This document shows positions 19,670 to 32,000 of a DNA stretch of 32,000 nucleotides, in pieces. This DNA comes from Candidatus Woesearchaeota archaeon (GTDB lineage: Archaea > Nanobdellota > Nanobdellia > Pacearchaeales > GW2011-AR1): the NCBI GenBank assembly GCA_964497435.1, contig CAZCCD010000002.1, positions 84,602 to 116,601 on the forward strand. The letters run 5' to 3'. Each line of letters begins with the position of its first letter. Position 1 is the first letter of the stretch. A program made the translations under genes and the position numbers. Under the pieces are notes generated by a model, which saw nothing but the letters and a program-made list of their open reading frames with translations, did no database searches and was not told the DNA's origin.

Positions 19670-21175
19670 ATGGGAAAAAATAAGCCTTTATCTAAAATAG
19701 TTTTTAAAAATACCTTTTATAATTTTACATCAAGAATTATATCTAAAATTTTAGGATTAATATTTGTGGTTGTTCTTGCAAGAGCACTTCAACCAGAATT
19801 GTTTGGATTGTACAATATTGTTTTTTCTGTAGTATTTATTTTTCTTACATTTAGTGATTTAGGAATTAATACAGCTCTTATAAAGTATGTTGCTTCTAAT
19901 CTCAACAAAAAAGAAATAGCAGCTTCTTATGTTTCTTATTTATTTAAACTAAAGGTATATTTATCCTTAGGTTTTTCTGCTTTGTTAATAATTTTAGCAA
20001 AGCCTCTAGCAGACTTAGTTTTTAAAAAACCAGAGTTATTTTCTTTGTTTTTATTAACTTCTTTGTATATTTTATTAGCGTCTTTAATTGATTTTTTCTC
20101 TTCGTTTTTCTACCCATTCAATGAGATAAAATATGTCCCGATACAAGAATCCGTCTTTCAAGTCATCAGGATTTTGGTTGTCTTTTCTTTCTTATTCTTA
20201 ATTTCAAAAACCCTAATAAATGTTTTCTTTGCGTTAATAATTACTAACATCTTTATGTTGGCTTTTGTTTTTTTCATTGTTAGAAAAAAATATTTTTTTC
20301 TTTTATCTTTTAAATCATTCTTAAATAAAAAAGAAAAGAAAAAAGTTATTTCTTATACTATTTATTTAACAATAGCAAATCTTTCCGCAATATTCTTTAC
20401 CTATATTGATGTAATAATGTTAGGTATATTCCTAGATGCTAGCTATGTTGGTTTTTACAAAGCAGCACAGTCTTTAGTAACGACTGTTTCAGGATTAATG
20501 GCAATCACTTCTATTCTTTTTCCGATTTTTTCACAACTAGATGCTAAAAGATCTGGGGATGCTTTTAGAAAAGTTTTTAGGTATTCTGCAATATTATCCT
20601 TTCCAGCTTCTTTTGGATTGGCTTTAATTGCTAAACCTTTTATAAATGTGCTTTATGGAACAGAGTATTTACCTTCTACATTGCCATTATTTGCTTTATC
20701 CTTTCTTATTTTAGCTCCAACAGCAAGTTTATTCCCTGTTTTTTTTAGCGCTAAAGAAAAACCAGAATGGCCAGCAAAAATGATGATAATCGCAAGTGTC
20801 TTAAACTGTGTTTTAAATTTCATTTTAATAAAAACTCTTTTAAATATTAGTCCTCTTTACGCAACTCTTGGGGCAGCAATTGCAACTCTTGCTAGCAATT
20901 TCTTTTTTTATTTAAGCCTTGTGATTATTGCAAAAAAAGAATTTAAATTATTCTTAGAACCATCTTCTATTTACAAACCACTTATCGCTAGTTTAGTTAT
21001 GGTTGTTTTCTTAATATCTTTTAATATTGTTGTGGGTCTAACCTGGCCAATGGCAATATTTGAAGTTATATTTGGCGCTATAGTTTATTTTATTATCTTA
21101 TTTTTTATAAATGGCATAAAAAAATCAGATTTTGTGTTATTTAAAAATCTTTTAGGATTTAATCCTGGCAATTAA
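19670..21175 (+). CDS. Polysaccharide/oligosaccharide flippase, MOP (Wzx-like) superfamily
   Basis: 501 aa with about 12-14 TM helices and a Wzx-like N-terminus (NTFYNFTSRIISKILGLIFVVVLARALQPELFGLY). Adjacent to the sugar-modification genes. Confidence 0.75.
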   Translation: MGKNKPLSKIVFKNTFYNFTSRIISKILGLIFVVVLARALQPELFGLYNIVFSVVFIFLTFSDLGINTALIKYVASNLNKKEIAASYVSYLFKLKVYLSLGFSALLIILAKPLADLVFKKPELFSLFLLTSLYILLASLIDFFSSFFYPFNEIKYVPIQESVFQVIRILVVFSFLFLISKTLINVFFALIITNIFMLAFVFFIVRKKYFFLLSFKSFLNKKEKKKVISYTIYLTIANLSAIFFTYIDVIMLGIFLDASYVGFYKAAQSLVTTVSGLMAITSILFPIFSQLDAKRSGDAFRKVFRYSAILSFPASFGLALIAKPFINVLYGTEYLPSTLPLFALSFLILAPTASLFPVFFSAKEKPEWPAKMMIIASVLNCVLNFILIKTLLNISPLYATLGAAIATLASNFFFYLSLVIIAKKEFKLFLEPSSIYKPLIASLVMVVFLISFNIVVGLTWPMAIFEVIFGAIVYFIILFFINGIKKSDFVLFKNLLGFNPGN

Positions 21176-22214
21176 TTACAGCCCTAATTATCTTTCCTTC
21201 TTCTAGATCGTGAATTGCTTGGTTTATTCTAGTTAAAGAATAGGTTCTTGTTATTAGTTTTTCAAGTTTTAATTTACCATCTATATACATCTTGGCATAA
21301 AAAGGTATGTCTCTATCGGGATTTGTGGAACCCCCCCATGAACCCCTTATCCTTTTACCCTTTATTAAATCAAAAGGATAAATTTTTATTTTTTCATTTC
21401 TACCAATATTCCCAGCGATTATTGTTAATCCTCCATCCCTTCCGTCTTTGCCTTCTTTTATAACACTAAATGCTTCTTCCATTGCTTTTTTTGAGCCAGC
21501 GGTTTCTATAGAATAATTAACACCAACCCCATTAGTCAAATCACTTATTTTTTTATAAACATCTCCTTCGGCAGCATTTATTGTATGGGTAGCCCCTATT
21601 TCTCTTGCAAAATCAAGTTTGCTTTTGTTTATATCGACGGCAATTAAAGGATTAATGCTAATAGCAGCTGCATACAGCAATGCACTAGATCCAATACCTC
21701 CTATACCAAATATTGCAATAGAATCTCCAAGGGCAGGATTAATATCATTTTTCACTATTCCTCCTCCAGTAGGAATTGCACAACCCAAGAGAGAAACAAC
21801 AGGACCAGAAATGATTCTTGGAATTTTTGTTAGTCTGTTCTCAGAAACCACTGCATAATTTAAAAAAGTCGCTGCAGATCCAGAGTTTATTTTTTCTCCG
21901 TCTTTATTGTATTGTAAGTCTTTGGTATCCAAACCACTTCCCTTTATCCATGAAACAACAACATAGTCCCCACCCCCTACTTTAGTGACCGTCTCATGAG
22001 TTCTTTGAACTATAGCCGAGGCCTCATGTCCTAATGTGTGTGGTAAATATCTATCCGGACCATTTAAGGCTCTTACCTCATTTATTTGGCTGTGGCACAA
22101 ACCAGAATAAAGTACCTTAACTAAAACCTCCCCCATTCTCAAATCCGGAATTTCTATTTCTTCTATAGAAAGAGGTTTATTACTTTCACGTAATATTGCA
22201 GCTAATGTTTTCAT
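21159..22214 (-). CDS. Zinc-dependent medium-chain alcohol dehydrogenase/reductase family protein
   Basis: GLCHSQ...GHEASAIV zinc-site motifs and Rossmann IFGIGGIGS. The ATG at 22214 (MKTLAAIL) lies 2 nt after the upstream stop; the ORF track extends to 22232. Confidence 0.8.
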   Translation of the reverse strand: MKTLAAILRESNKPLSIEEIEIPDLRMGEVLVKVLYSGLCHSQINEVRALNGPDRYLPHTLGHEASAIVQRTHETVTKVGGGDYVVVSWIKGSGLDTKDLQYNKDGEKINSGSAATFLNYAVVSENRLTKIPRIISGPVVSLLGCAIPTGGGIVKNDINPALGDSIAIFGIGGIGSSALLYAAAISINPLIAVDINKSKLDFAREIGATHTINAAEGDVYKKISDLTNGVGVNYSIETAGSKKAMEEAFSVIKEGKDGRDGGLTIIAGNIGRNEKIKIYPFDLIKGKRIRGSWGGSTNPDRDIPFYAKMYIDGKLKLEKLITRTYSLTRINQAIHDLEEGKIIRAVINCQD

Positions 22215-22216
22215 TT

Positions 22217-22843
22217 TTAGGTTGTAAACCAATGATAATCCCCATCATAGCCAACTTCTTCGAAAAGACTTTTCCATTGATCAACCGAGTAAACAGTTTT
22301 AATAGTTGGTGCCCATGCAAGAAGCCTTTCCTTTTCTCTTTCATTATTAAATGCATCCACATTAACAAAATAGTTTCCTCTTCCTACCCGCATAATTTCT
22401 TGTAAAGCTACTTTAGCTCTCTCTGGGGTCAAGAAATGTATGGTATTAAATGCAGCTACAAAATCAAAAGAATTATCTTCGAAGTCTAGTCTATCAGCAC
22501 TTCCAATTAAGAGAAAAGGCTTAATTTCTTCAGGAGCTTTTGAAATAGCATATTCAGATACGTCAATGCCACGAACAGCCATATTGGGATATAGCTGGAC
22601 TAAATCGTAGAGAAAGAATCCCTTTGCACATCCAACATCTAAGACACTGCTATTGGGTTTTAAATCATATCTCTTTACCACTTCTTCAGCAATAGGTTTC
22701 CATCTACCATCATAATTGTAACCTCCATAACCTTGGTCTCTTGTGCCATCAAAATAATCATGTCCAAATGCCGGATCCATATTACGAACAGGACCATCAT
22801 ACATTTTATGTTGTGCTCTCAAAAGATTATATAATTCCCCCAT
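22217..22843 (-). CDS. Class I SAM-dependent methyltransferase
   Basis: Motif I VLDVGCAKGFF, post-I acidic residue, and motif II/III region FDFVAAFNTIHF. Confidence 0.8.
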   Translation of the reverse strand: MGELYNLLRAQHKMYDGPVRNMDPAFGHDYFDGTRDQGYGGYNYDGRWKPIAEEVVKRYDLKPNSSVLDVGCAKGFFLYDLVQLYPNMAVRGIDVSEYAISKAPEEIKPFLLIGSADRLDFEDNSFDFVAAFNTIHFLTPERAKVALQEIMRVGRGNYFVNVDAFNNEREKERLLAWAPTIKTVYSVDQWKSLFEEVGYDGDYHWFTT

Positions 22844-22999: not shown

Positions 23000-24844
23000 T
23001 TAAGCCACTATTAATTCTTCTAATTTTTTTCCTTCTGCAAAAGATATTAGTTCAGGGAATTCTTCAGCACGCCTTCTCCAATAAGCTGACTCATCAAGTA
23101 GTTGATAAAATCTTCTCTTATAAAATCCAGCATTTTTGTTATCACCACTAATTGTATAACCTCTTACAAGAGCTGCACACATAGAAGCATCATAAGGATA
23201 AGCTTGATATATTGAATCAAACCATCTTATCATTTTGTCAACTCTTCCATCAGAAGTAAAGTTGTAGTTTTGGAAAAAATTAGTCATTAGGTTAAAGGTA
23301 AACCATATTTCTTTAATTTGTTCTTGACTTGGAACAGAATCTTCTGGTATATTAAACACATCTTTTCCAGTTCTTATTTGTTCTCTATTTTTGTCAAATT
23401 GATATCCAAATTCCCCTCTAGCAGCAGCCTTGCCAGGGTTTAATGTTCTGTCATAACTGTCAACATCTACTCTTTCGTCACCCAAAGCTTGGAAAGCTGA
23501 GAACATTTCAGTTCCTTTAAGCGGTTGACAGATATAAAAGCTTGACCAATCCCATTTCAGTTCATTAGCGAAATTGTAAGTATCCATCATTTGTGCAAAA
23601 GTTTCATTCGGAAAGCCTACAATAAAATTTGCACTTACAAAAACTTCAGGATATCTTTTGAATAATTCGCTTTTTTCTCTTAGTTTTGGTTTTGTTGTTG
23701 GTTTCTTTATATCTTTAAGTATTTTATCATTCCCTGATTCGATTCCTATTTTAAAGGCCTTCATTCCTGATTTTACCATTGAGTACATTATTTCATCTGT
23801 AATTGCAGCCGCAATTAACCCATTATTACATATCCACTCAATCTCAGGTACTTCTGTTGATAATCCATTAAAAAGCTCAACAGCCCTACTAGGATTCCAC
23901 AGAAGATCATCATCTAACCAATCTATCTGTTTTATTCCTTTTTCTTTAACAAGAAATTTTATTTCATCTATAACACTTCTAACAGACCTTTGCCTGACTC
24001 CAAAGCCATTAAAGTCTCTTACTGTGCAAAAAGTACATCTAGCTCTACAACCTCGATTACTTAAAACCGTGGCAAAACTCTTATCTTCGCCGTTATAGCG
24101 CGAAAATGCAGCAAGTGAACCGTATCTATGATAGTTTTCTACAGGTATTAAAGAATAAAACTCTCTAATATCTTCGTCAATTGGAACTTCTTCTGTATTT
24201 TCCCCTAACTCATAAACTTTATCTTCCAGAGAAATGGCAATACCATTTGGCACAGAGATAACTTTCCCAGAAAAACAACTTTCCATAAAAGATTTGAACT
24301 GTAATTCTGCCTCTTTTCTGAAAACAATATCTGCATGACCTTCTTTTAGAATTTCTTTATAATCATAAGTTGCTTGCACACCTCCAGCCAAAAGAGGTAT
24401 CTTTGGATAGTTTTCTCTAACATACCTTGCAACATCTACAAAGCAAGATTTAGTTGCACTGAACATGTAAGTAATTCCTACGTGAGCTTCTTTACACTGC
24501 TCTATTGTTCTGGAAACAATTTCTTGCCAGTGTTTGTAAGAAAATTCTTCATCATGAGCATGACGAAGTAGTTCATAATTAAGATCAATTATTTTTATAT
24601 CTATTGAAGGATTTACCTTTTTTGCTGTAGCAGCTAGGTATAAAAGACCAACCGGAGGATAAGCATAGTACCCTTTATTTCTTGCTACTAAAACATCAAA
24701 ATTTTCTTCCGGTACTAGCTGGGGGTTTATAAGTACAAGGTCTGTAGGACTTCTAACAGGCAGCTTGTCTAGAAAGGATTGAAATACCTCACTACTATTA
24801 ACGCCATTCTTTTTCACCAATAAATTTTGAAGATTGTTTTGCAT
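23000..24844 (-). CDS. B12-binding-domain radical SAM enzyme (class B, methyltransferase-like)
   Basis: N-terminal cobalamin-binding-like Rossmann region (YPPVGLLYLAATAKK...). Radical SAM cluster motif CRARCTFC (CxxxCxxC). Has a ~200-aa C-terminal extension. Confidence 0.85.
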   Translation of the reverse strand: MQNNLQNLLVKKNGVNSSEVFQSFLDKLPVRSPTDLVLINPQLVPEENFDVLVARNKGYYAYPPVGLLYLAATAKKVNPSIDIKIIDLNYELLRHAHDEEFSYKHWQEIVSRTIEQCKEAHVGITYMFSATKSCFVDVARYVRENYPKIPLLAGGVQATYDYKEILKEGHADIVFRKEAELQFKSFMESCFSGKVISVPNGIAISLEDKVYELGENTEEVPIDEDIREFYSLIPVENYHRYGSLAAFSRYNGEDKSFATVLSNRGCRARCTFCTVRDFNGFGVRQRSVRSVIDEIKFLVKEKGIKQIDWLDDDLLWNPSRAVELFNGLSTEVPEIEWICNNGLIAAAITDEIMYSMVKSGMKAFKIGIESGNDKILKDIKKPTTKPKLREKSELFKRYPEVFVSANFIVGFPNETFAQMMDTYNFANELKWDWSSFYICQPLKGTEMFSAFQALGDERVDVDSYDRTLNPGKAAARGEFGYQFDKNREQIRTGKDVFNIPEDSVPSQEQIKEIWFTFNLMTNFFQNYNFTSDGRVDKMIRWFDSIYQAYPYDASMCAALVRGYTISGDNKNAGFYKRRFYQLLDESAYWRRRAEEFPELISFAEGKKLEELIVA

Positions 24845-25054: not shown

Positions 25055-26158
25055 CTACTCAAAAAATGTTTTAATTTTATTTATGACATATTCAATTTGC
25101 CATTCTTTTAATCCAGGATATATTGGTAAACTTAAGATTTTCTTTGCTTGGCTTTCTACTACTGGAAAATCTCCTTCTTTATAACCAAAATATTTTGAAG
25201 CTTCTTGCAGATGTATAGGGATTGGATAATGGATTTTGGTTTCAATACCATTTTCTAACAAAAACTTTTGCAATTCGTTCCTTTTTTCAGTCATTATAAC
25301 AAAATTATGGTAAACAGGTTCTTCATACTCTTTATCTACAGGAACCTGAACGACATCTTTTAAAAACCCTCTATAAATTGACGCTATTTCTCTGTGTCTT
25401 TTATTCCATTCTTCAATGTGTTTTAATTTAATATTTGCTATACCTGCTTGAATCCCATCTAGTCTAGAATTATATCCGAAAAATTCACATTCATCTCTAT
25501 TTTTTAGTCCGTGATTATGTAGCTTTTTTAACTTTTCGTAAAGTTCTTTATTATTAGTTGAAATAAAACCCCCATCTCCCTGAACGTGTAAATTTTTTAA
25601 AGGATGCAATGAAAAACATCCCACAATTCCAAAAGATCCGACTCTTTTATCTTTGTACTTAGCTCCTATAGCTTGAGCAGCGTCTTCTATTACATATAAT
25701 TTGTATTTTCTTGCTATTTCAAATAATGGATCTATTTCTACAGGTCTGCCTGTTAAATGTATAGGCATTATTGCTTTCGTTTTTTGAGTTATTACATCTT
25801 CTATTTTTGATGTATCTATATTATAATCCTCTTTTACATCAACAAAAACAGGTTTAGCTCCTGCTGCAACTATTGATCCTACACTGGCGATAAAAGAGTT
25901 TGGAGCTGTAATAACCTCATCTCCTTGTCCGATACCTAAAGCCTCCATCACAAGAAATAATGCATCCGTACAATTTCCTACAGCAATAACATAATCTGTT
26001 TCACAAAACTTTGCTATATTTTTTTCAAATTCCTCTACCTCTAGAGTATTAACATAAGCTCCTTGGCTAGAAAGCTCATCAATTTTATTTATTATTTCCT
26101 CTTTTAATTCCTTGTATTCCAAGCCTAAATTTACAAATCTTACTTTAATTTCATTCAT
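25055..26158 (-). CDS. DegT/DnrJ/EryC1/StrS-family PLP-dependent sugar aminotransferase (paralogue 1)
   Basis: Family-typical layout with the PLP lysine context GCFSLHPLKNL and ...VIEDAAQAIGA.... Confidence 0.9.
   Translation of the reverse strand: MNEIKVRFVNLGLEYKELKEEIINKIDELSSQGAYVNTLEVEEFEKNIAKFCETDYVIAVGNCTDALFLVMEALGIGQGDEVITAPNSFIASVGSIVAAGAKPVFVDVKEDYNIDTSKIEDVITQKTKAIMPIHLTGRPVEIDPLFEIARKYKLYVIEDAAQAIGAKYKDKRVGSFGIVGCFSLHPLKNLHVQGDGGFISTNNKELYEKLKKLHNHGLKNRDECEFFGYNSRLDGIQAGIANIKLKHIEEWNKRHREIASIYRGFLKDVVQVPVDKEYEEPVYHNFVIMTEKRNELQKFLLENGIETKIHYPIPIHLQEASKYFGYKEGDFPVVESQAKKILSLPIYPGLKEWQIEYVINKIKTFFE
25773..25866 (-). repeat. 94-nt tract identical to 26878-26971
   Basis: Read base by base: GCTTTCGTTTTTTGAGTTATTACATCTTCTATTTTTGATGTATCTATATTATAATCCTCTTTTACATCAACAAAAACAGGTTTAGCTCCTGCTG occurs in both aminotransferase genes, and the flanks diverge immediately. 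Confidence 0.9.
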
Positions 26159-27305
26159 TGTAAAATTCCCTTATTTTTTCTACAACATAATTTCTTTGTT
26201 CACTAGTTATAAACTCGTGAACAGGTAAAGATATAATCTCTTTACAAATCATTTCGGTAATTGGAAAATCCCCTTCTTTATAACCTAATGCTTTTGAAGG
26301 CTCTTGTAGATGCATTGGAATTGGGTAATGGATTTTTGCATCTATTCCTTTACTTCGTAGAAATTTAATTAACTCACCCCTTCTTTCAGCCCTTATAACA
26401 TAAATATGAAAAACATGTTTGATGTTAGGGTTTCTATAAGGTATTTTTATTTGGGGTATTTTTCTTAGTTCTTCATCAAAAAATTTAGCGTTCGCTATTC
26501 TTGCATTTGTGATCCTATCTATTCTTTTTAGTAAGTGATTGGCGACTATTGCTTGTAAACTGTCTAGCCTAGAATTATATCCAAACAAGATCTGTTCATC
26601 CCTATTTTTTAATCCATGATTTCTTAATAAAGCAATTTTATCATGTAGCTCTTTATTATTTGTTATCAAATACCCACCATCCCCCCAAATATTTAAGTTT
26701 TTTAGTGGATGCATCGAGAAACACCCAATATCTCCTAGAGTACCAGGAGGTGAGCCATAATAAAGAGCATTAATCGTGTGACAAGCATCTTCTATTATAT
26801 ATAAATTATGTTTTTTTGCTATAGAGATTATTTTTTTCATATCACAACAATATCCACTCCAATGAACAGGAACAACAGCTTTCGTTTTTTGAGTTATTAC
26901 ATCTTCTATTTTTGATGTATCTATATTATAATCCTCTTTTACATCAACAAAAACAGGTTTAGCTCCTGCTGTTGCTATAGCTCCAACAGTTGCAAAAAAA
27001 GTATAAGGGGTTGTAATAACTTCATCACCCTCTTTAATCCCAATTGCTTTTAATGCTAAGAATATAGCATCTGTTCCACTGCCAACTCCTAAACAATACT
27101 TAGCCCCTGTTAAACCTTCTATGTTTTCTTCAAATTCCAAAACACTTTCACCAAGAGTGTAATCACAATTTTTAATTAACTTTTCTATCTCTTTAAATAT
27201 CTCTTTATAATCTGAAAATTGTTCCTTCAAGTAATTATGGTTGACTTTATGTTTTCCTGCTTCTTCATACTGTTTAACTAAATAATCTTTTTTGATTTCC
27301 GTCAT
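26151..27305 (-). CDS. DegT/DnrJ/EryC1/StrS-family PLP-dependent sugar aminotransferase/dehydratase (paralogue 2)
   Basis: GCFSMHPLKNL lysine context and IIEDACHTINA. Has an 8-nt overlap with paralogue 1. Confidence 0.9.
   Translation of the reverse strand: MTEIKKDYLVKQYEEAGKHKVNHNYLKEQFSDYKEIFKEIEKLIKNCDYTLGESVLEFEENIEGLTGAKYCLGVGSGTDAIFLALKAIGIKEGDEVITTPYTFFATVGAIATAGAKPVFVDVKEDYNIDTSKIEDVITQKTKAVVPVHWSGYCCDMKKIISIAKKHNLYIIEDACHTINALYYGSPPGTLGDIGCFSMHPLKNLNIWGDGGYLITNNKELHDKIALLRNHGLKNRDEQILFGYNSRLDSLQAIVANHLLKRIDRITNARIANAKFFDEELRKIPQIKIPYRNPNIKHVFHIYVIRAERRGELIKFLRSKGIDAKIHYPIPMHLQEPSKALGYKEGDFPITEMICKEIISLPVHEFITSEQRNYVVEKIREFYNE
26878..26971 (-). repeat. Partner of the 25773-25866 identical tract
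   Basis: See 25773-25866. Confidence 0.9.
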
Positions 27306-28306
27306 ATTTTATGAATATACTCTAAAGGCTGTTTTTTTAATTCTTCCCAAGATTCATTAATCCAATCTATCACTTCCTTAATTCCGGACTTTAAATCAAT
27401 TGTTGGTTTCCAATCTAGCTCTTTTTTAGCTTTATCTATGTTTAAGGAGTACATATCATCCTGACCAAAATTTTCTTTTATCATTTCCACTGATTTTTCA
27501 AAATCATATCCCATTATATTACAAATCATATCAATCAAATCTCTTATACTTATATTTTCTCTTTCTGGAGCTAAATGATAGGCCTCTCCATTTTTTCCTT
27601 TCTCAATTGCTTTAAGAGTAGCGTCTGAAATATCCCGAATATTAATAAATGACCTAACGGCTTTGCCATCCCCATGCAATTGTATTTTCTTTCCCATTTT
27701 AAGGTATATTATTGTTCTTGGAATTATTCTATAAAGTTGTTGATGTACCCCATAAACGTTTGCAGATCTAGTGCTAACAAAAGGAAATCTATATTTTTTG
27801 AAGAGTGAGAATAAAAATAATTCCCCTGCCAATTTTGAGGCTGCATAAGGAGTACTAGGATAGAAATTATAATTTTCTTTTATATTTTTCTCAGTGCTTC
27901 CATAGACTTCTGGGGTGGACACATTAATGTATCTCTTCAAATACCCCCTGTCTTTGAGGTGATTAGCTATATTAACAATACCAATACAATTTGTTTTAAA
28001 CCATTGTTCAGGCCATTTCCAGCTATTCCTTACCTCTCCTTGGGCAGAATAATTAGCCACTATTTCTGGTTCAAATTTATCAAGAATTTTTTTTATTTCT
28101 TCAATATTTTTATTCACATCTAATTGATAAAATTTGAATCTTTTTGATCTTTCTTTTTTGTATAAATAAGGAAGGAAGATTTTATTATATTCTGGAGACC
28201 TACTAATTCCAATAACTTCTGCATTAGTTTTTTCCAAAACATGATTAACAAAATGCGCCCCTGTAAAAGAATTACTTCCAATAACAGCTACTCTATTAAT
28301 TTCCAT
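27302..28306 (-). CDS. Extended SDR NAD-dependent epimerase/dehydratase (sugar 4,6-dehydratase-like)
   Basis: VIGSNSFTGAHFV Rossmann motif, STPEVYG and YAASK (YxxxK). Has a 4-nt overlap with the downstream aminotransferase gene. Confidence 0.85.
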   Translation of the reverse strand: MEINRVAVIGSNSFTGAHFVNHVLEKTNAEVIGISRSPEYNKIFLPYLYKKERSKRFKFYQLDVNKNIEEIKKILDKFEPEIVANYSAQGEVRNSWKWPEQWFKTNCIGIVNIANHLKDRGYLKRYINVSTPEVYGSTEKNIKENYNFYPSTPYAASKLAGELFLFSLFKKYRFPFVSTRSANVYGVHQQLYRIIPRTIIYLKMGKKIQLHGDGKAVRSFINIRDISDATLKAIEKGKNGEAYHLAPERENISIRDLIDMICNIMGYDFEKSVEMIKENFGQDDMYSLNIDKAKKELDWKPTIDLKSGIKEVIDWINESWEELKKQPLEYIHKI

Positions 28307-28307
28307 T

Positions 28308-29294
28308 TTACTTTAGATTTATTTCTTTCATTCTCTTAATATTATGGTATATTGGATTATTAAAAGGATCTTTAATAAGGCCTTTATTAAAAGCTTTAAC
28401 TAAACTTTGGATTGCATCATTAATTCCATAATGACATTCAAAACCCAAGACCTTCTTCATTTTATCTGTATTTATGTGATAAGATCTAAGGTCGTCTGTC
28501 GGAACAACTTCTATTTCAATTGAGTCATCTTTCAGTGTTTTTTTTACCTCTTCAGCTATTTCTATCATAGTATAATTTTTGTAAGAGACATTAAATGCTT
28601 GTTTGTGGATTTTTTTAGCTGGTTCTTCTAGCATTAACTCATAAAATCTAACCATATCTTTTATGTTTAAAACAGGCCTCATTTGACTCCCTCCAAACAC
28701 TATTATCTTTTTATTGGTTAGGGCATGAGATGTTAAAGTGTTTACAGAAAGGTCTAACCTCAATCTTGGAGAATATCCACATAATGTTGCAGGCCTTACG
28801 AAAACATACTCAAAACCAGGATCTTGTTTTAGAAGTTTCTTTTCACATTTTACTTTATATTTTGCATAATCTGTTATTGGCTCTGCTTTTGTTTCTTCAG
28901 TAACTTCTACATTGATTGGTTTTATCCCATACTGCGCTGTTGAACTAGCAACTATTAACCTTTTTATTCCATTGACAGTGCAAGAGTCAATTACATTTTG
29001 AAAAGCCCTGTAATTTATTGACTTTCCTAATTTTGTATTTAAATCAAAACTAGGGTCATTAGATATGCAAGCTAAGTGTATAAATGCATCATGATTTTTT
29101 GATGCGTCTATAAGTTTTTCCCTGTTCCTTATATCCCCTTTTATTTCTTTGAGATTTTGATGGGGTTTTAAAACATTTCCATAAATGTACAAATCATAGA
29201 CTGTGACTTCGTATCCTTTATCTAATAAACTTGGGACTAATAAACTTCCAAGGTATCCTGCACCACCAGTTATAAATACTTTTTTGAATAGCAC
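28308..29294 (-). CDS. Extended SDR NAD-dependent epimerase/dehydratase/reductase
   Basis: ITGGAGYLGS Rossmann motif and YAKYK (YxxxK). GTG start at 29294. Confidence 0.85.
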   Translation of the reverse strand: MLFKKVFITGGAGYLGSLLVPSLLDKGYEVTVYDLYIYGNVLKPHQNLKEIKGDIRNREKLIDASKNHDAFIHLACISNDPSFDLNTKLGKSINYRAFQNVIDSCTVNGIKRLIVASSTAQYGIKPINVEVTEETKAEPITDYAKYKVKCEKKLLKQDPGFEYVFVRPATLCGYSPRLRLDLSVNTLTSHALTNKKIIVFGGSQMRPVLNIKDMVRFYELMLEEPAKKIHKQAFNVSYKNYTMIEIAEEVKKTLKDDSIEIEVVPTDDLRSYHINTDKMKKVLGFECHYGINDAIQSLVKAFNKGLIKDPFNNPIYHNIKRMKEINLK

Positions 29295-29394
29295 AAATTT
29301 TGAAAAGGGTATTATTTTATAAGCTTATCTATGAATTAATACATATACTATTTATAACATAAAAATATAAAAATGTTGGAAGGACAAACCTAAT

Positions 29395-30360
29395 ATGGAT
29401 GAAAAAACTCTTGTGGATTTATTTAGAGATTTGTTGTATATCAGAATGGTTGAGGAGAGAGTTTGTGATCTTTATTCTGAACAAGAAATGAGGTGCCCGG
29501 TTCATATTTCAATAGGGCAAGAAGCAACAGCCGTAGGATTGTCGAAAGCATTAAATAAAGAAGACCTTGTTTTTAGTAATCATAGATGTCATGGACATTA
29601 CCTTGCTAAAGGCGGCAATTTAAAGAAATTTTTTTCAGAACTTTATGGAAAAGCTACTGGTTGCTCTGGTGGAAGGGGTGGATCAATGCATTTAATTGAT
29701 ACTGATGTTGGTTTTTCCGCATCAACTCCCATAGTTTCGGGCACAATTCCTATTGCAGTAGGTTCAGCTCTGGCATTTTCAATTAAAAATGAAAATAAAA
29801 TTGCAGTTAGCTTTTTCGGCGAGGCTGCGATAGAAGAAGGATCTTTTCATGAAAGTATTAATTTTGCTAAATTAATGAATCTACCAATAATTTTTTTCTG
29901 TGAGAATAATCTTTATTCTGTTTATACTCCTTTAGAAGAGAGACAACCTAAAAAAAGGATTTCTAACATTGCTAGAGCAAACGGTTTAATTACCTATGAA
30001 ATTGATGGAAATGATGTTGTTCAAGTTTATAAAGTATGTAAAGAAGCTGTTGAAAAAATTAGAAATGATGAAGGGCCTATCTTTATTGAAGCATCAACTT
30101 ATAGGTGGAGAGAACATTGTGGACCAAATTATGATAATCATCTTGGTTATAGAAGTATAGAAGAATTTTTTTATTGGAAAGATAAAGACCCTTTAAAGAA
30201 AATGAAAGACTGCCTACTTAAATCGGGAACTATAACGGAAAATGAAATAAGAAAAATGGAACAAGAAATAAATATTTTGATAAGTGAGGCTGTAGAATTC
30301 GCAAAAGAAAGCCCATACCCTAACAAAGATGAGCTAAATAAATTTGTATATGCTGATTAA
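29395..30360 (+). CDS. ThDP-dependent dehydrogenase E1 component, alpha subunit
   Basis: E1-alpha family features: HISIGQEA, HRCHGHYLAKGG, GGRGGSMHL and the ThDP motif GEAAIEEGSFHESINFA...FFCENN. Confidence 0.85.
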   Translation: MDEKTLVDLFRDLLYIRMVEERVCDLYSEQEMRCPVHISIGQEATAVGLSKALNKEDLVFSNHRCHGHYLAKGGNLKKFFSELYGKATGCSGGRGGSMHLIDTDVGFSASTPIVSGTIPIAVGSALAFSIKNENKIAVSFFGEAAIEEGSFHESINFAKLMNLPIIFFCENNLYSVYTPLEERQPKKRISNIARANGLITYEIDGNDVVQVYKVCKEAVEKIRNDEGPIFIEASTYRWREHCGPNYDNHLGYRSIEEFFYWKDKDPLKKMKDCLLKSGTITENEIRKMEQEINILISEAVEFAKESPYPNKDELNKFVYAD

Positions 30361-30361
30361 A

Positions 30362-31414
30362 ATGACAAGACTGATAAGATTTACAGAGGCAATAAGAGAA
30401 GCAATAGATCAATCAATGAAAATTGATTCAAGAGTTTTTGTAATTGGTGAAGGTGTTCCAGATCCTAAAGGAATATTTGGAACAACCCTTGGTTTAAGAG
30501 AGAAATATGGTAAAGAAAGAGTCTTAGATATGCCTCTTTCTGAAAATGCTTTAACTGGAGTTTGTATTGGTGCAGCAACACAGGGATTGAGACCAATTTT
30601 GACTCATCAAAGAATTGATTTCGCATTACTTTCAATGGATCAAATAATAAATAACGCCGCCAAGTGGCATTATATGTTTAATGGTGTTTATAAAATTCCT
30701 TTAGTCATAAAAATGACAATAGGTATGGGATGGGGTCAAGGAGCGCAACACTCTCAAAACTTGCAAGCACTTTTTTCCCACATCCCTGGATTAAAAGTCG
30801 TCATGCCATCAACAGCTTATGATGCTAAAGGTTTGATGATAGCCTCTATTAAAGACAATAATCCTGTAATTTATATTGAACATAGATGGCTTCACAATAC
30901 TCTTGGAGATGTTCCTGAAGAACCCTATGAAGTTCCTCTCGGTAAGGTAAAGATAGTTAGGGAAGGAAAAGATTTAACGATAGTTTCAACTTCCTATATG
31001 ACTCTTGAAGCACTAAAAGCTGCAAATTTACTTAAAGAACAAGGTGTTTTTATAGAAGTCATTGACGTTAGAACATTAAAACCATTGGATATAGAAACGG
31101 TTATTTCTTCTGTTAAGAAAACAGGACACTTACTTGCAATAGACTCTGGCCATAGTTTTGGAGGATATGCCTCTGAGATTATCTCACAGGTTTCTGAGTT
31201 AGCTTTTACAAATTTGAAATCTGGTCCAAAAAAAATATCCCCACCAGATATTCCTACTCCATCAAGCCCGGGATTAACTAAATTTTATTATCCCAGATAC
31301 CCAGACATAATAAGGAAAATATCTTTAATTCTTGGAAAAGAGTTAATTGTTCCAGATATTATGGAGAATATTCCTTTAGATGTACCAGACTCTACATTTA
31401 CAGGACCATTTTAA
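30362..31414 (+). CDS. ThDP-dependent dehydrogenase E1 component, beta subunit (transketolase-like Pyr and C-terminal domains)
   Basis: IGEGVPDPKGIFGTT...RVLDMPLSENALTGVCIGAA...IEHRWL...VIDVRTLKPLD. The ATG at 30362 lies 1 nt after the alpha-subunit stop. Confidence 0.85.
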   Translation: MTRLIRFTEAIREAIDQSMKIDSRVFVIGEGVPDPKGIFGTTLGLREKYGKERVLDMPLSENALTGVCIGAATQGLRPILTHQRIDFALLSMDQIINNAAKWHYMFNGVYKIPLVIKMTIGMGWGQGAQHSQNLQALFSHIPGLKVVMPSTAYDAKGLMIASIKDNNPVIYIEHRWLHNTLGDVPEEPYEVPLGKVKIVREGKDLTIVSTSYMTLEALKAANLLKEQGVFIEVIDVRTLKPLDIETVISSVKKTGHLLAIDSGHSFGGYASEIISQVSELAFTNLKSGPKKISPPDIPTPSSPGLTKFYYPRYPDIIRKISLILGKELIVPDIMENIPLDVPDSTFTGPF

Positions 31415-31415
31415 A

Positions 31416-31943
31416 ATGCCAAAACTTTTTTTACCAGAAGATTTTAAGTCGGAAAAAGTTCTTGATATCAATGAATGTGCTAGAGTTGTAGATCATTTAA
31501 TAAAAGAAGGAAAAATTGTAGGTTTATGTCACGGTCGTTTTGACTTACTCCACCCCGGTCATGTTAAACATTTTCAATCATCAAAAAAATTATGTGATAT
31601 TCTAGTTGTTTCTATAACATCTGACAGATACGCCGAATCTAGAAAAAAAAGATCTAATTTATATGATCAACATTTAAGAGCGTACATAGTTTCTAATATA
31701 AGATTTGTGGATTATGTAACAATTTCTGATTTTGATTTAGCTGTAGAAGTTATCAAAATGTTAAAACCATCATTGTACATAAAAGGCCCGGATTATACAA
31801 AAACAAGAGATAATGTTGAAAAAGAAAGATTAGAACGTGAGATAGAATCAATAGAAAGTGTTGGGGGAAGAATGGTATATACTAATGACACAACCTTTTC
31901 AACAACAGATATATTGAGGGTTATAAAAAATGGACCAGTTTAA
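31416..31943 (+). CDS. Cytidylyltransferase-fold sugar-phosphate nucleotidyltransferase, RfaE domain II-like
   Basis: GRFDLLHPGHVKHF (HxGH), ...IKGPDY... and a C-terminal STTDIL, as in heptose-1-phosphate adenylyltransferase domains. The ATG at 31416 lies 1 nt after the E1-beta stop. Confidence 0.7.
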   Translation: MPKLFLPEDFKSEKVLDINECARVVDHLIKEGKIVGLCHGRFDLLHPGHVKHFQSSKKLCDILVVSITSDRYAESRKKRSNLYDQHLRAYIVSNIRFVDYVTISDFDLAVEVIKMLKPSLYIKGPDYTKTRDNVEKERLEREIESIESVGGRMVYTNDTTFSTTDILRVIKNGPV

Positions 31944-32000
31944 AAAAGTACTTACTATCTTAGACAGAGACGGTACCATAATAAAAAATGATGATTTCTT
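31930..32000 (+). CDS. HAD-IIIA phosphatase, GmhB/histidinol-phosphatase-like; N-terminal fragment that continues beyond the window
   Basis: My translation gives MDQFKKVLTILDRDGTIIKNDDF.... LDRDGTI is HAD motif I as seen in GmhB-type enzymes. Overlaps the upstream gene by 14 nt. Confidence 0.55.
   Translation, partial: MDQFKKVLTILDRDGTIIKNDDF

Follow-up and report, generated by a model that had tools for sequence, protein, structure and literature searches.

Paired E1alpha/E1beta enzymes of the alphaKADH2 type are known to attach an acetyl group from pyruvate as a branch to C3 or C4 of a sugar, as in the pathways to aldgamycin, kosinostatin, kibdelomycin, avilamycin, paulomycin and trioxacarcin, and the kibdelomycin pair (KbDH-alpha/beta) has been assayed in vitro (PMC12247030). 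The branch ketone is later reduced, methylated or transaminated (PMC12247030). According to this 2025 review, sugar-branching enzymes of the type are found in approximately 120 clusters, which are ‘mainly’ for specialised natural products, and there is no structure yet (PMC12247030); the proposals for AviB1/B2 and Pau11/12 are set out in PMC4753412. Here we analysed two adjacent E1alpha- and E1beta-like genes in a 32,000-nucleotide stretch of DNA, referred to as the window, from a Candidatus Woesearchaeota archaeon (assembly GCA_964497435.1, contig CAZCCD010000002.1, positions 84,602 to 116,601). By analogy with AviB1/B2, Pau11/12 and KbDH-alpha/beta, we consider it on balance probable that the pair works as these enzymes do, as a stand-alone, lipoyl-independent carboligase dependent on thiamine diphosphate (ThDP). 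A preliminary description of the window had proposed that the pair forms a two-carbon branch on a sugar, a reading which our results support and refine, with the donor, acceptor, position and tailoring steps as we infer them below.

Judged by their sequences, both subunits are members of the E1 alpha/beta (alphaKADH2) ThDP superfamily. All three domains of the pair (E1_dh, Transket_pyr and Transketolase_C) were matched over the full domain length, and this agrees with the preliminary description, which had considered both subunits intact and had placed a GEAA...NN ThDP motif in alpha and the Pyr and C-terminal domains in beta; the motif was confirmed at G142-E143-A144...N171-N172. Transketolase and dxs models scored ≤30 bits on the pair, with alpha matching E1_dh instead. 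The top PDB match of E1alpha was human pyruvate dehydrogenase (PDH) E1alpha (160 bits), and that of E1beta was 1W85_B/3DUF_B (244 bits). In alignments to PDB E1 structures, the cofactor-activating Glu59 of 1W85_B corresponds to E67 of E1beta, His128 of the same chain to H136 of E1beta, and the second His of ‘HGHS’ in human E1alpha to H241 of E1alpha, which lies in an ‘REHC’ stretch. The active-site degeneracy that the preliminary description had allowed for was hence not seen in these catalytic residues. The cofactor motif of E1alpha reads GEA-X26-NN versus GDG-X26-NN in the standard form, so that spacing and NN are intact and Asp is exchanged for Glu. E1beta probably starts at ATG 30362, because this codon lies one base past the E1alpha stop and gives an N-terminus (MTRLIRF) which matches the family consensus; the upstream starts offered by the open reading frame (ORF) list for E1beta (TTG 30344) and for the next gene (ATG 31380) are probably wrong.

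No E2 or E3 gene is encoded in the window, as the preliminary description had stated, and none was found in the assembly either (0.97 Mb, 19 contigs, 92% complete). Neither the E2 catalytic domain (2-oxoacid_dh, PF00198) nor the lipoate/biotin ligase family (BPL_LplA_LipB, PF03099) nor LipA had a match in this 92%-complete assembly. The sole Biotin_lipoyl match, a 153-aa ORF which weakly resembles a biotin carboxyl carrier protein (BCCP), was rejected as a lipoyl-E2 candidate. The only E3-like ORF (Pyr_redox_dim) passed the cut-off for MerA (492 bits versus 454) and failed that for lipoamide dehydrogenase (lipoamide_DH, 353 versus 409), and was rejected as an E3. This MerA-like flavoprotein disulfide reductase (L004:201-1619; numbers with L denote surveyed loci, with G genomes and with C contigs) is the only gene of the 2.3 kb contig C18, which may represent contamination or a mobile element. 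As E2, E3 and lipoylation genes are missing, the pair cannot act within a lipoyl complex. The genome also encodes a 2-oxoacid (pyruvate):ferredoxin oxidoreductase subunit and a 612-aa transketolase, the latter as a separate ORF on contig C6, hence neither pyruvate oxidation nor the supply of sedoheptulose 7-phosphate depends on the pair. A ThDP enzyme of the acetolactate synthase (ALS)/YerE type was looked for through TPP_enzyme_N (PF02776), which had no match in the genome.

Scores against models of catabolic E1 enzymes were low for alpha and marginal for beta. E1alpha reached 315 bits against a cut-off of 394 (TIGR03182) and 219 bits against 411 (TIGR03181, the PDH E1alpha equivalog); a DPANN pair which is linked to E2/E3 passes the latter model with 444 bits. 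E1beta lies just above the cut-off of NF006667, a broad subfamily model (325 versus 321 bits).

E1alpha has thousands of homologues, the nearest being metagenomic proteins of 52–68% identity. We surveyed 80 loci, taking one genome per species from 185,579 species genomes, and the ORFs of each locus were blasted against the window cluster proteins and verified E2 and E3. In a first concatenated alpha+beta tree of 79 pairs, the window was placed in a clade of 18 rows (SH-aLRT 100), of which 12 had a heptose context, five another sugar context and one lay on a short contig, none being linked to E2/E3. A profile of the clade’s E1beta searched against 401 genomes of the actinomycete class gave two matches above the continuum. 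One (L162) is in a heptose cassette of a 2.6 Mb actinobacterium, and the other (L163) is a pair in a 9.3 Mb actinomycete genome of 70% GC, flanked by RmlA, RmlB, a nucleoside diphosphate (NDP)-hexose 2,3-dehydratase, DegT, KAS III and a KS-AT-ACP polyketide synthase. With these included, an IQ-TREE phylogeny of concatenated alpha+beta placed both inside the sugar clade, which comprised 20 rows with a support of 100/100 and again no row linked to E2/E3. The pair hence falls outside the catabolic E1 enzymes against which the preliminary description had wished to see it placed. The tree was built without the named AviB1/B2, Pau11/12, AlmDI/DII and KbDH sequences; support was below 90 among branches of the E2-linked subclades, and acetoin E1 is not claimed as the sister group. 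Six clade members lack nearby heptose-activation genes, namely L163 in its RmlA/RmlB deoxyhexose cluster and five with DegT/SDR (short-chain dehydrogenase/reductase) neighbours only. The clade is a large, uncharacterised and cross-domain one which also contains an antibiotic-type pair.

Signature columns were those that are invariant within the clade and differ from 36 E2-linked pairs. They comprise P35, C90, E147, R183 and G243 in alpha and G37, H88, R90, W130, Q135, R181, D267 and Y316 in beta, and nearly all of these residues are present in L163. Beta H88 (30605-30607) and R90 (30611-30613) replace the Ile and Phe of an ‘EIQF’ stretch in E2-linked pairs, and beta Q135 is the neighbour of the catalytic His. 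Having gained basic residues around its predicted active site, the clade would be suited to an anionic nucleotide-sugar acceptor. At the Asp position of GDG, Glu was found in four of 18 sugar-clade members and in none of the 60 other pairs in the alignment. Variation at this position is confined to the sugar clade, with Glu in the window, L006, L017 and L109 and Arg in L009, a Nitrospina member (L009:9995-10963) whose NN box reads SEDN.

Elsewhere in the phylogeny, a distant E1alpha/beta clade also includes pairs that have no E2 close by and lie in clusters of the pseudaminic-acid type (L078, L052 and L079, with PseI, DegT and CMP-synthase, from Pirellulales, Halochromatium and Desulfovibrio). 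E1 pairs thereby seem to have entered sugar pathways a second time, independently.

The genomic setting of the pair is conserved together with its sequence. Two SDR genes, here called SDRepi and SDR46DH, lie next to the pair in the window, and surveyed loci of at least 44% identity possess an SDRepi orthologue (47–53%) beside E1alpha, plus GmhA, HldA/HldE, HldC and a DegT pair. These loci are from Elusimicrobia, Rhodospirillaceae, Pseudobdellovibrionaceae, Oligoflexia, Nitrospina, Gammaproteobacteria and Patescibacteria; loci of lower identity typically come with E2 and E3. SDRepi orthologues of 44–70% identity adjoin E1alpha/beta in eight other loci, and the synteny between the E1 pair and sugar genes is kept in at least 12. 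The cassette as a whole (SDR, E1alpha, E1beta, GmhA/HldA/HldC, DegT) is found again in further DPANN archaea and at least eight bacterial phyla, i.e. it is widespread in bacteria and not specific to archaea. Within the window’s own phylum, an E1alpha-like gene was detected in 62 of 301 genomes and in none of the 13 genomes of the same family. Window-type pairs in the phylum (44–63% identity; G011, G097, G209, G186 and G138) are neighboured by SDRepi (67–70%), SDR46DH, a fused HldC-GmhB, GmhA and DegT, and phylum pairs at 28–36% identity are in E1-E2-E3 operons. This patchy spread suggests horizontal transfer, to which we assign no direction. The phylum (301) and actinomycete (401) tallies take in unpublished genomes (G244; G565, G326, G675, G606, G338, G317, G334 and G309), and no locus-level claim rests on these.

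Several variants of the arrangement were observed. Two sugar-clade members have alpha and beta joined in a single protein, of 686 aa (L107:8616-10676, G209) and 641 aa (L014:10001-11926, Patescibacteria). In the close DPANN relative G097, E1beta is split into ORFs of 215 and 163 aa (L106:8772-9915), by a frameshift or an assembly error. A radical S-adenosylmethionine (SAM) enzyme of approximately 375–420 aa recurs in bacterial cassettes (L008:6342-7466, L007:13051-14319 and L018:8739-9938), that of L018 having a SPASM domain; the window has a B12-binding radical SAM enzyme instead. A Kutzneria locus (L048:6493-14357) encodes an E1alpha-beta fusion of 688 aa, then a short protein resembling E2 (lipoyl plus truncated catalytic domain) and a GT4 glycosyltransferase, with an adenylation-PCP (peptidyl carrier protein) gene and an MFS transporter upstream, and looks like a natural-product cluster employing an E1-E2 module.

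In the window, the pair stands in an operon with sugar-activation genes, opposite an operon of SDR genes (Table 1). TAA-A-ATG occurs at both the E1alpha–E1beta (30358-30364) and the E1beta–HldC (31412-31418) junctions, an arrangement which points to stop-start translational coupling, and the GmhB-like gene overlaps the HldC-like gene. Past the right end of the window, on the opposite strand, are a GmhA-like isomerase and an RfaE-domain-I-like PfkB kinase. Taken together, the HldC-, GmhB-, GmhA- and PfkB-like genes are, by predicted function, a full RfaE-type heptose-activation set. Right after these heptose genes, also beyond the window, is a pseudaminic-acid set (L002:8055-11894) in which PseI passes its equivalog cut-off, accompanied by a GNAT resembling PseH and by a fusion of CMP-sugar synthetase and class III aminotransferase. 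The preliminary description had called the neighbours sugar-modifying, and indeed each gene from 19670 to the end of the window is a sugar-pathway gene; archaeal ribosomal-protein and DUF655 genes occupy the left end. SDRepi, whose closest PDB match, 6VO6, is presumably the GDP-heptose C4-dehydrogenase Cj1427, is a candidate C4-dehydrogenase which would produce the keto-sugar. SDR46DH may not be a classical 4,6-dehydratase; its T-P-E motif, near residue 131, is kept in five of the five cassette orthologues examined.

Table 1 Features of the E1alpha/E1beta locus, with positions in the window
Feature	Position	Strand	Evidence
Wzx/MurJ-type flippase, glycan-export end of the cluster	19670-21175	+	PF01943 144 bits
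Zn-dependent alcohol dehydrogenase, candidate branch-ketone reductase	21159-22232	-	40% homologues in L006, L106
Class I SAM methyltransferase	22217-22843	-	35-45% homologues in L106, L109, L162
B12-binding radical SAM enzyme, candidate C-methyltransferase	23000-24844	-	PF02310 + PF04055; homologues adjoin the E1 pair in L011, L017, L106
DegT-family sugar aminotransferase B	25055-26158	-	PF01041 368 bits; 48% orthologues in L007, L008
DegT-family sugar aminotransferase A	26151-27305	-	PF01041 354 bits; 47-51% orthologues beside the E1 pair in L007, L008
SDR46DH, RmlB-like extended SDR, T-P-E for T-D-E	27302-28306	-	TIGR01181 197 bits, under cut-off; top PDB matches are dTDP-glucose 4,6-dehydratases
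SDRepi, extended SDR without the dehydratase acid/base pair	28308-29294	-	Pfam Epimerase; top PDB 6VO6/6VO8, 134 bits
AT-rich divergent intergenic region between the SDR operon (-) and the E1 operon (+)	29295-29394		Sequence and ORF layout
E1alpha-like ThDP subunit (PP domain), 321 aa	29395-30360	+	Pfam E1_dh 242 bits, full length
ThDP-Mg motif G142-E143-A144 ... N171-N172 (GEA replaces GDG)	29818-29910	+	Sequence reading
E1beta-like subunit (Pyr + C-terminal domains), 350 aa	30362-31414	+	Transket_pyr 116 bits, Transketolase_C 110 bits
HldC/RfaE-domain-II-like sugar-1-phosphate nucleotidyltransferase, 175 aa	31416-31943	+	CTP_transf_like; TIGR02199 rfaE_dom_II 88.6 bits, under cut-off
GmhB-like HAD-IIIA phosphatase, start only	31930-32000 (continues to 32511; L002:3532-4113)	+	NF006506 GmhB 62.5 bits; TIGR01656 71 bits

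From this gene content, the sugar that is modified is probably an NDP-heptose and the acceptor of the E1 pair probably an NDP-4-keto-heptose. In the pathway we propose, sedoheptulose 7-phosphate supplied by the genome’s transketolase would be converted to NDP-heptose by the GmhA-, HldA-, GmhB- and HldC-like enzymes, and the adjacent extended SDR would oxidise this to NDP-4-keto-heptose, although the RmlB-like SDR may give a 6-deoxy form instead. E1alpha/beta would decarboxylate pyruvate on ThDP and add the resulting hydroxyethyl carbanion to the sugar ketone, so that a tertiary alcohol with a C-acetyl branch would result. Tailoring could follow by the pair of DegT aminotransferases, the B12-radical SAM enzyme, the methyltransferase and the Zn-dependent alcohol dehydrogenase, and the flippase would export the product on a lipid carrier. 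More tentatively, and with just short of even confidence, we suggest that the cassette makes a C-branched nine-carbon heptose, in which a tertiary carbinol carries acetyl, hydroxyethyl or 1-aminoethyl as its branch, and that this sugar is displayed on the surfaces of DPANN archaea and of many uncultured bacteria. To our knowledge, a C-branched heptose of such structure has not been reported from any organism. Literature searches found no paper tying such a pair to heptose pathways or to archaea, and those combining heptose with an E1 or ThDP enzyme gave no relevant match.

Other explanations of the pair have to be weighed against carboligation. That it is the catabolic E1 of a usual pyruvate, acetoin or branched-chain dehydrogenase complex, with E2/E3 left unassembled or lost, is close to refuted. 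E1-E2-E3 operons do occur in other genomes of the phylum, the genome is 92% complete and E1beta exceeds its broad model by a few bits, but E2, lipoate ligase and LipA were not found in the assembly, E1alpha falls under both PDH equivalog cut-offs and the separation from all E2-linked pairs is supported at 100/100. Synteny with sugar genes is moreover kept across domains, and a ferredoxin oxidoreductase is available for 2-oxoacid oxidation. It is also highly improbable that the pair is a decaying or inactive remnant in which the GEA motif abolishes cofactor binding. The replacement of Asp143 by Glu, the Arg at the motif position in L009 and the E1beta split into two ORFs in L106 (G097) would agree with decay; however, both ORFs in the window are undamaged and closely coupled, neither the catalytic Glu and His residues nor the NN motif has been lost, identity to relatives is 60–64% along the whole length, and Glu is a conservative metal ligand which recurs in four separate lineages of the clade.

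Two further possibilities keep the pair in sugar metabolism and change its reaction. A transketolase- or DXS-like synthase might produce an unusual ketose phosphate that is then activated by GmhA/HldA/GmhB/HldC, in analogy to the lincosamide octose route. In favour of such a synthase, E1, transketolase and DXS form one superfamily, the pair is co-transcribed with HldC and GmhB in the window, the clade-specific Arg/His could bind phosphate, and the activation genes score under the heptose equivalog cut-offs. We nevertheless regard it as distinctly improbable, as the pair in other loci is flanked by SDRs and DegT rather than by activation genes, six clade members (L163 and five others) have no heptose-activation genes nearby, and a GmhA-type enzyme could presumably not isomerise a pyruvate-derived 1-deoxy-ketose. 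The genome’s own transketolase can supply sedoheptulose 7-phosphate, and a role for the pair as supplier of this or another ketose phosphate is weakened by that bona fide enzyme as well as by the clade members that lack activation genes. A different ThDP reaction on the sugar, i.e. decarboxylation of a sugar 2-oxoacid, cleavage of an acyloin-type C–C bond in a keto-heptose, or chain extension at an aldehyde, is unlikely, if less so than the synthase. Among the nearest relatives with an E2 link is an acetoin-type operon under sigma-54 regulation (L029) and acetoin-type E1s cleave acyloins (PMC12247030), a cluster for pseudaminic acid, itself a 2-oxoacid sugar, lies just downstream, and the present measurements are compatible with more than one direction and site of reaction. 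Against this, the pair is consistently accompanied by heptose-activation genes and a keto-forming SDR rather than by NeuB/PseI, addition of acetyl to a ketone is the one role in sugars documented for this enzyme type (PMC12247030), and the clade holds a thymidine diphosphate (TDP)-deoxyhexose cluster in which no sugar 2-oxoacid is expected.

Several observations also weigh directly against the branching of an NDP-heptose by the pair. All four heptose-activation genes score under their equivalog cut-offs, hence the sugar may not be a heptose, and in the window the pair is joined to the operon of the activation genes rather than to that of the tailoring genes. The Mg-binding Asp of GDG is Glu in the window E1alpha and Arg in L009, and this could lower or change activity. 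The tie to the named sugar-branching pairs is drawn through one actinomycete proxy, L163.

If the pair is a carboligase of this kind, it would be the first case of ThDP-dependent C–C branching in an archaeal glycan, and the ‘antibiotic’ enzymes of AviB1/B2 type would have branched off from a far larger family that serves the cell surface. Genome annotation routinely labels E1alpha/beta pairs pyruvate or acetoin dehydrogenase, and for genome-reduced archaea and bacteria of candidate phyla the label suggests, wrongly, that pyruvate is metabolised oxidatively. Assigning this E2-free, well-supported clade to glycan synthesis would correct such metabolic reconstructions. It would also point to a branched higher-carbon sugar, so far undescribed, that host-attached organisms display, and to potential new carboligases for tertiary alcohol synthesis.

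Our reading of the locus is largely in agreement with the described sugar-branching systems, with differences in sugar and setting. AviB1/AviB2, Pau11/Pau12, the aldgamycin pair and KbDH-alpha/beta are, like the window pair, two-subunit E1alpha/beta enzymes without E2/E3, and the actinomycete antibiotic pairs are likewise found among NDP-sugar tailoring genes, beside keto-forming SDRs and DegT. The pair of L163, in a deoxysugar/polyketide setting of the AviB1/B2 type, shares the signature and lies inside the 100/100 clade of the window. The antibiotic pairs act on TDP-6-deoxyhexoses for actinomycete secondary metabolites, whereas the window pair is part of a heptose-activation cassette with a flippase, which suggests that the glycan is destined for the cell surface, in a DPANN-type archaeon as well as in many Gram-negative bacteria and candidate phyla. 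Acetoin dehydrogenase E1 (AcoA/AcoB, Ao:DCPIP oxidoreductase) and PDH E1alpha/beta have the same fold, domain order and catalytic Glu/His at approximately 40–45% identity. However, in these enzymes a lipoyl-E2 receives the acyl group, and their genes adjoin E2 and E3 (L029, L032 and L112-L116), neither of which accompanies the window pair, and they have Ile/Phe where the window pair has beta H88/R90.

YerE and YerE-like lyases, which serve yersiniose, erwiniose and caryophyllose, catalyse the same reaction as is proposed here, joining a ThDP-bound acyl anion from a 2-oxoacid to an NDP-4-keto-sugar that goes into a surface polysaccharide (PMC12247030). YerE, a single chain resembling ALS, belongs to the decarboxylase superfamily (TPP_enzyme_N, M and C) and the window pair is of the E1 type, hence the likeness is one of function, not of descent. 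The GDP-heptose pathway of Campylobacter jejuni resembles the proposed one in that sedoheptulose 7-phosphate passes through an isomerase, kinase, phosphatase and nucleotidyltransferase before C4 oxidation by an extended SDR (PMC10680097), the GDP-heptose C4-dehydrogenase Cj1427, whose function is described in the same paper. The C. jejuni heptose pathways, with this C4-dehydrogenase, epimerases and reductases, include no ThDP enzyme, and their activation genes are of the GHMP-kinase/GDP type, whereas those beside the window pair are of the RfaE type, with a PfkB kinase and a cytidylyltransferase fold.

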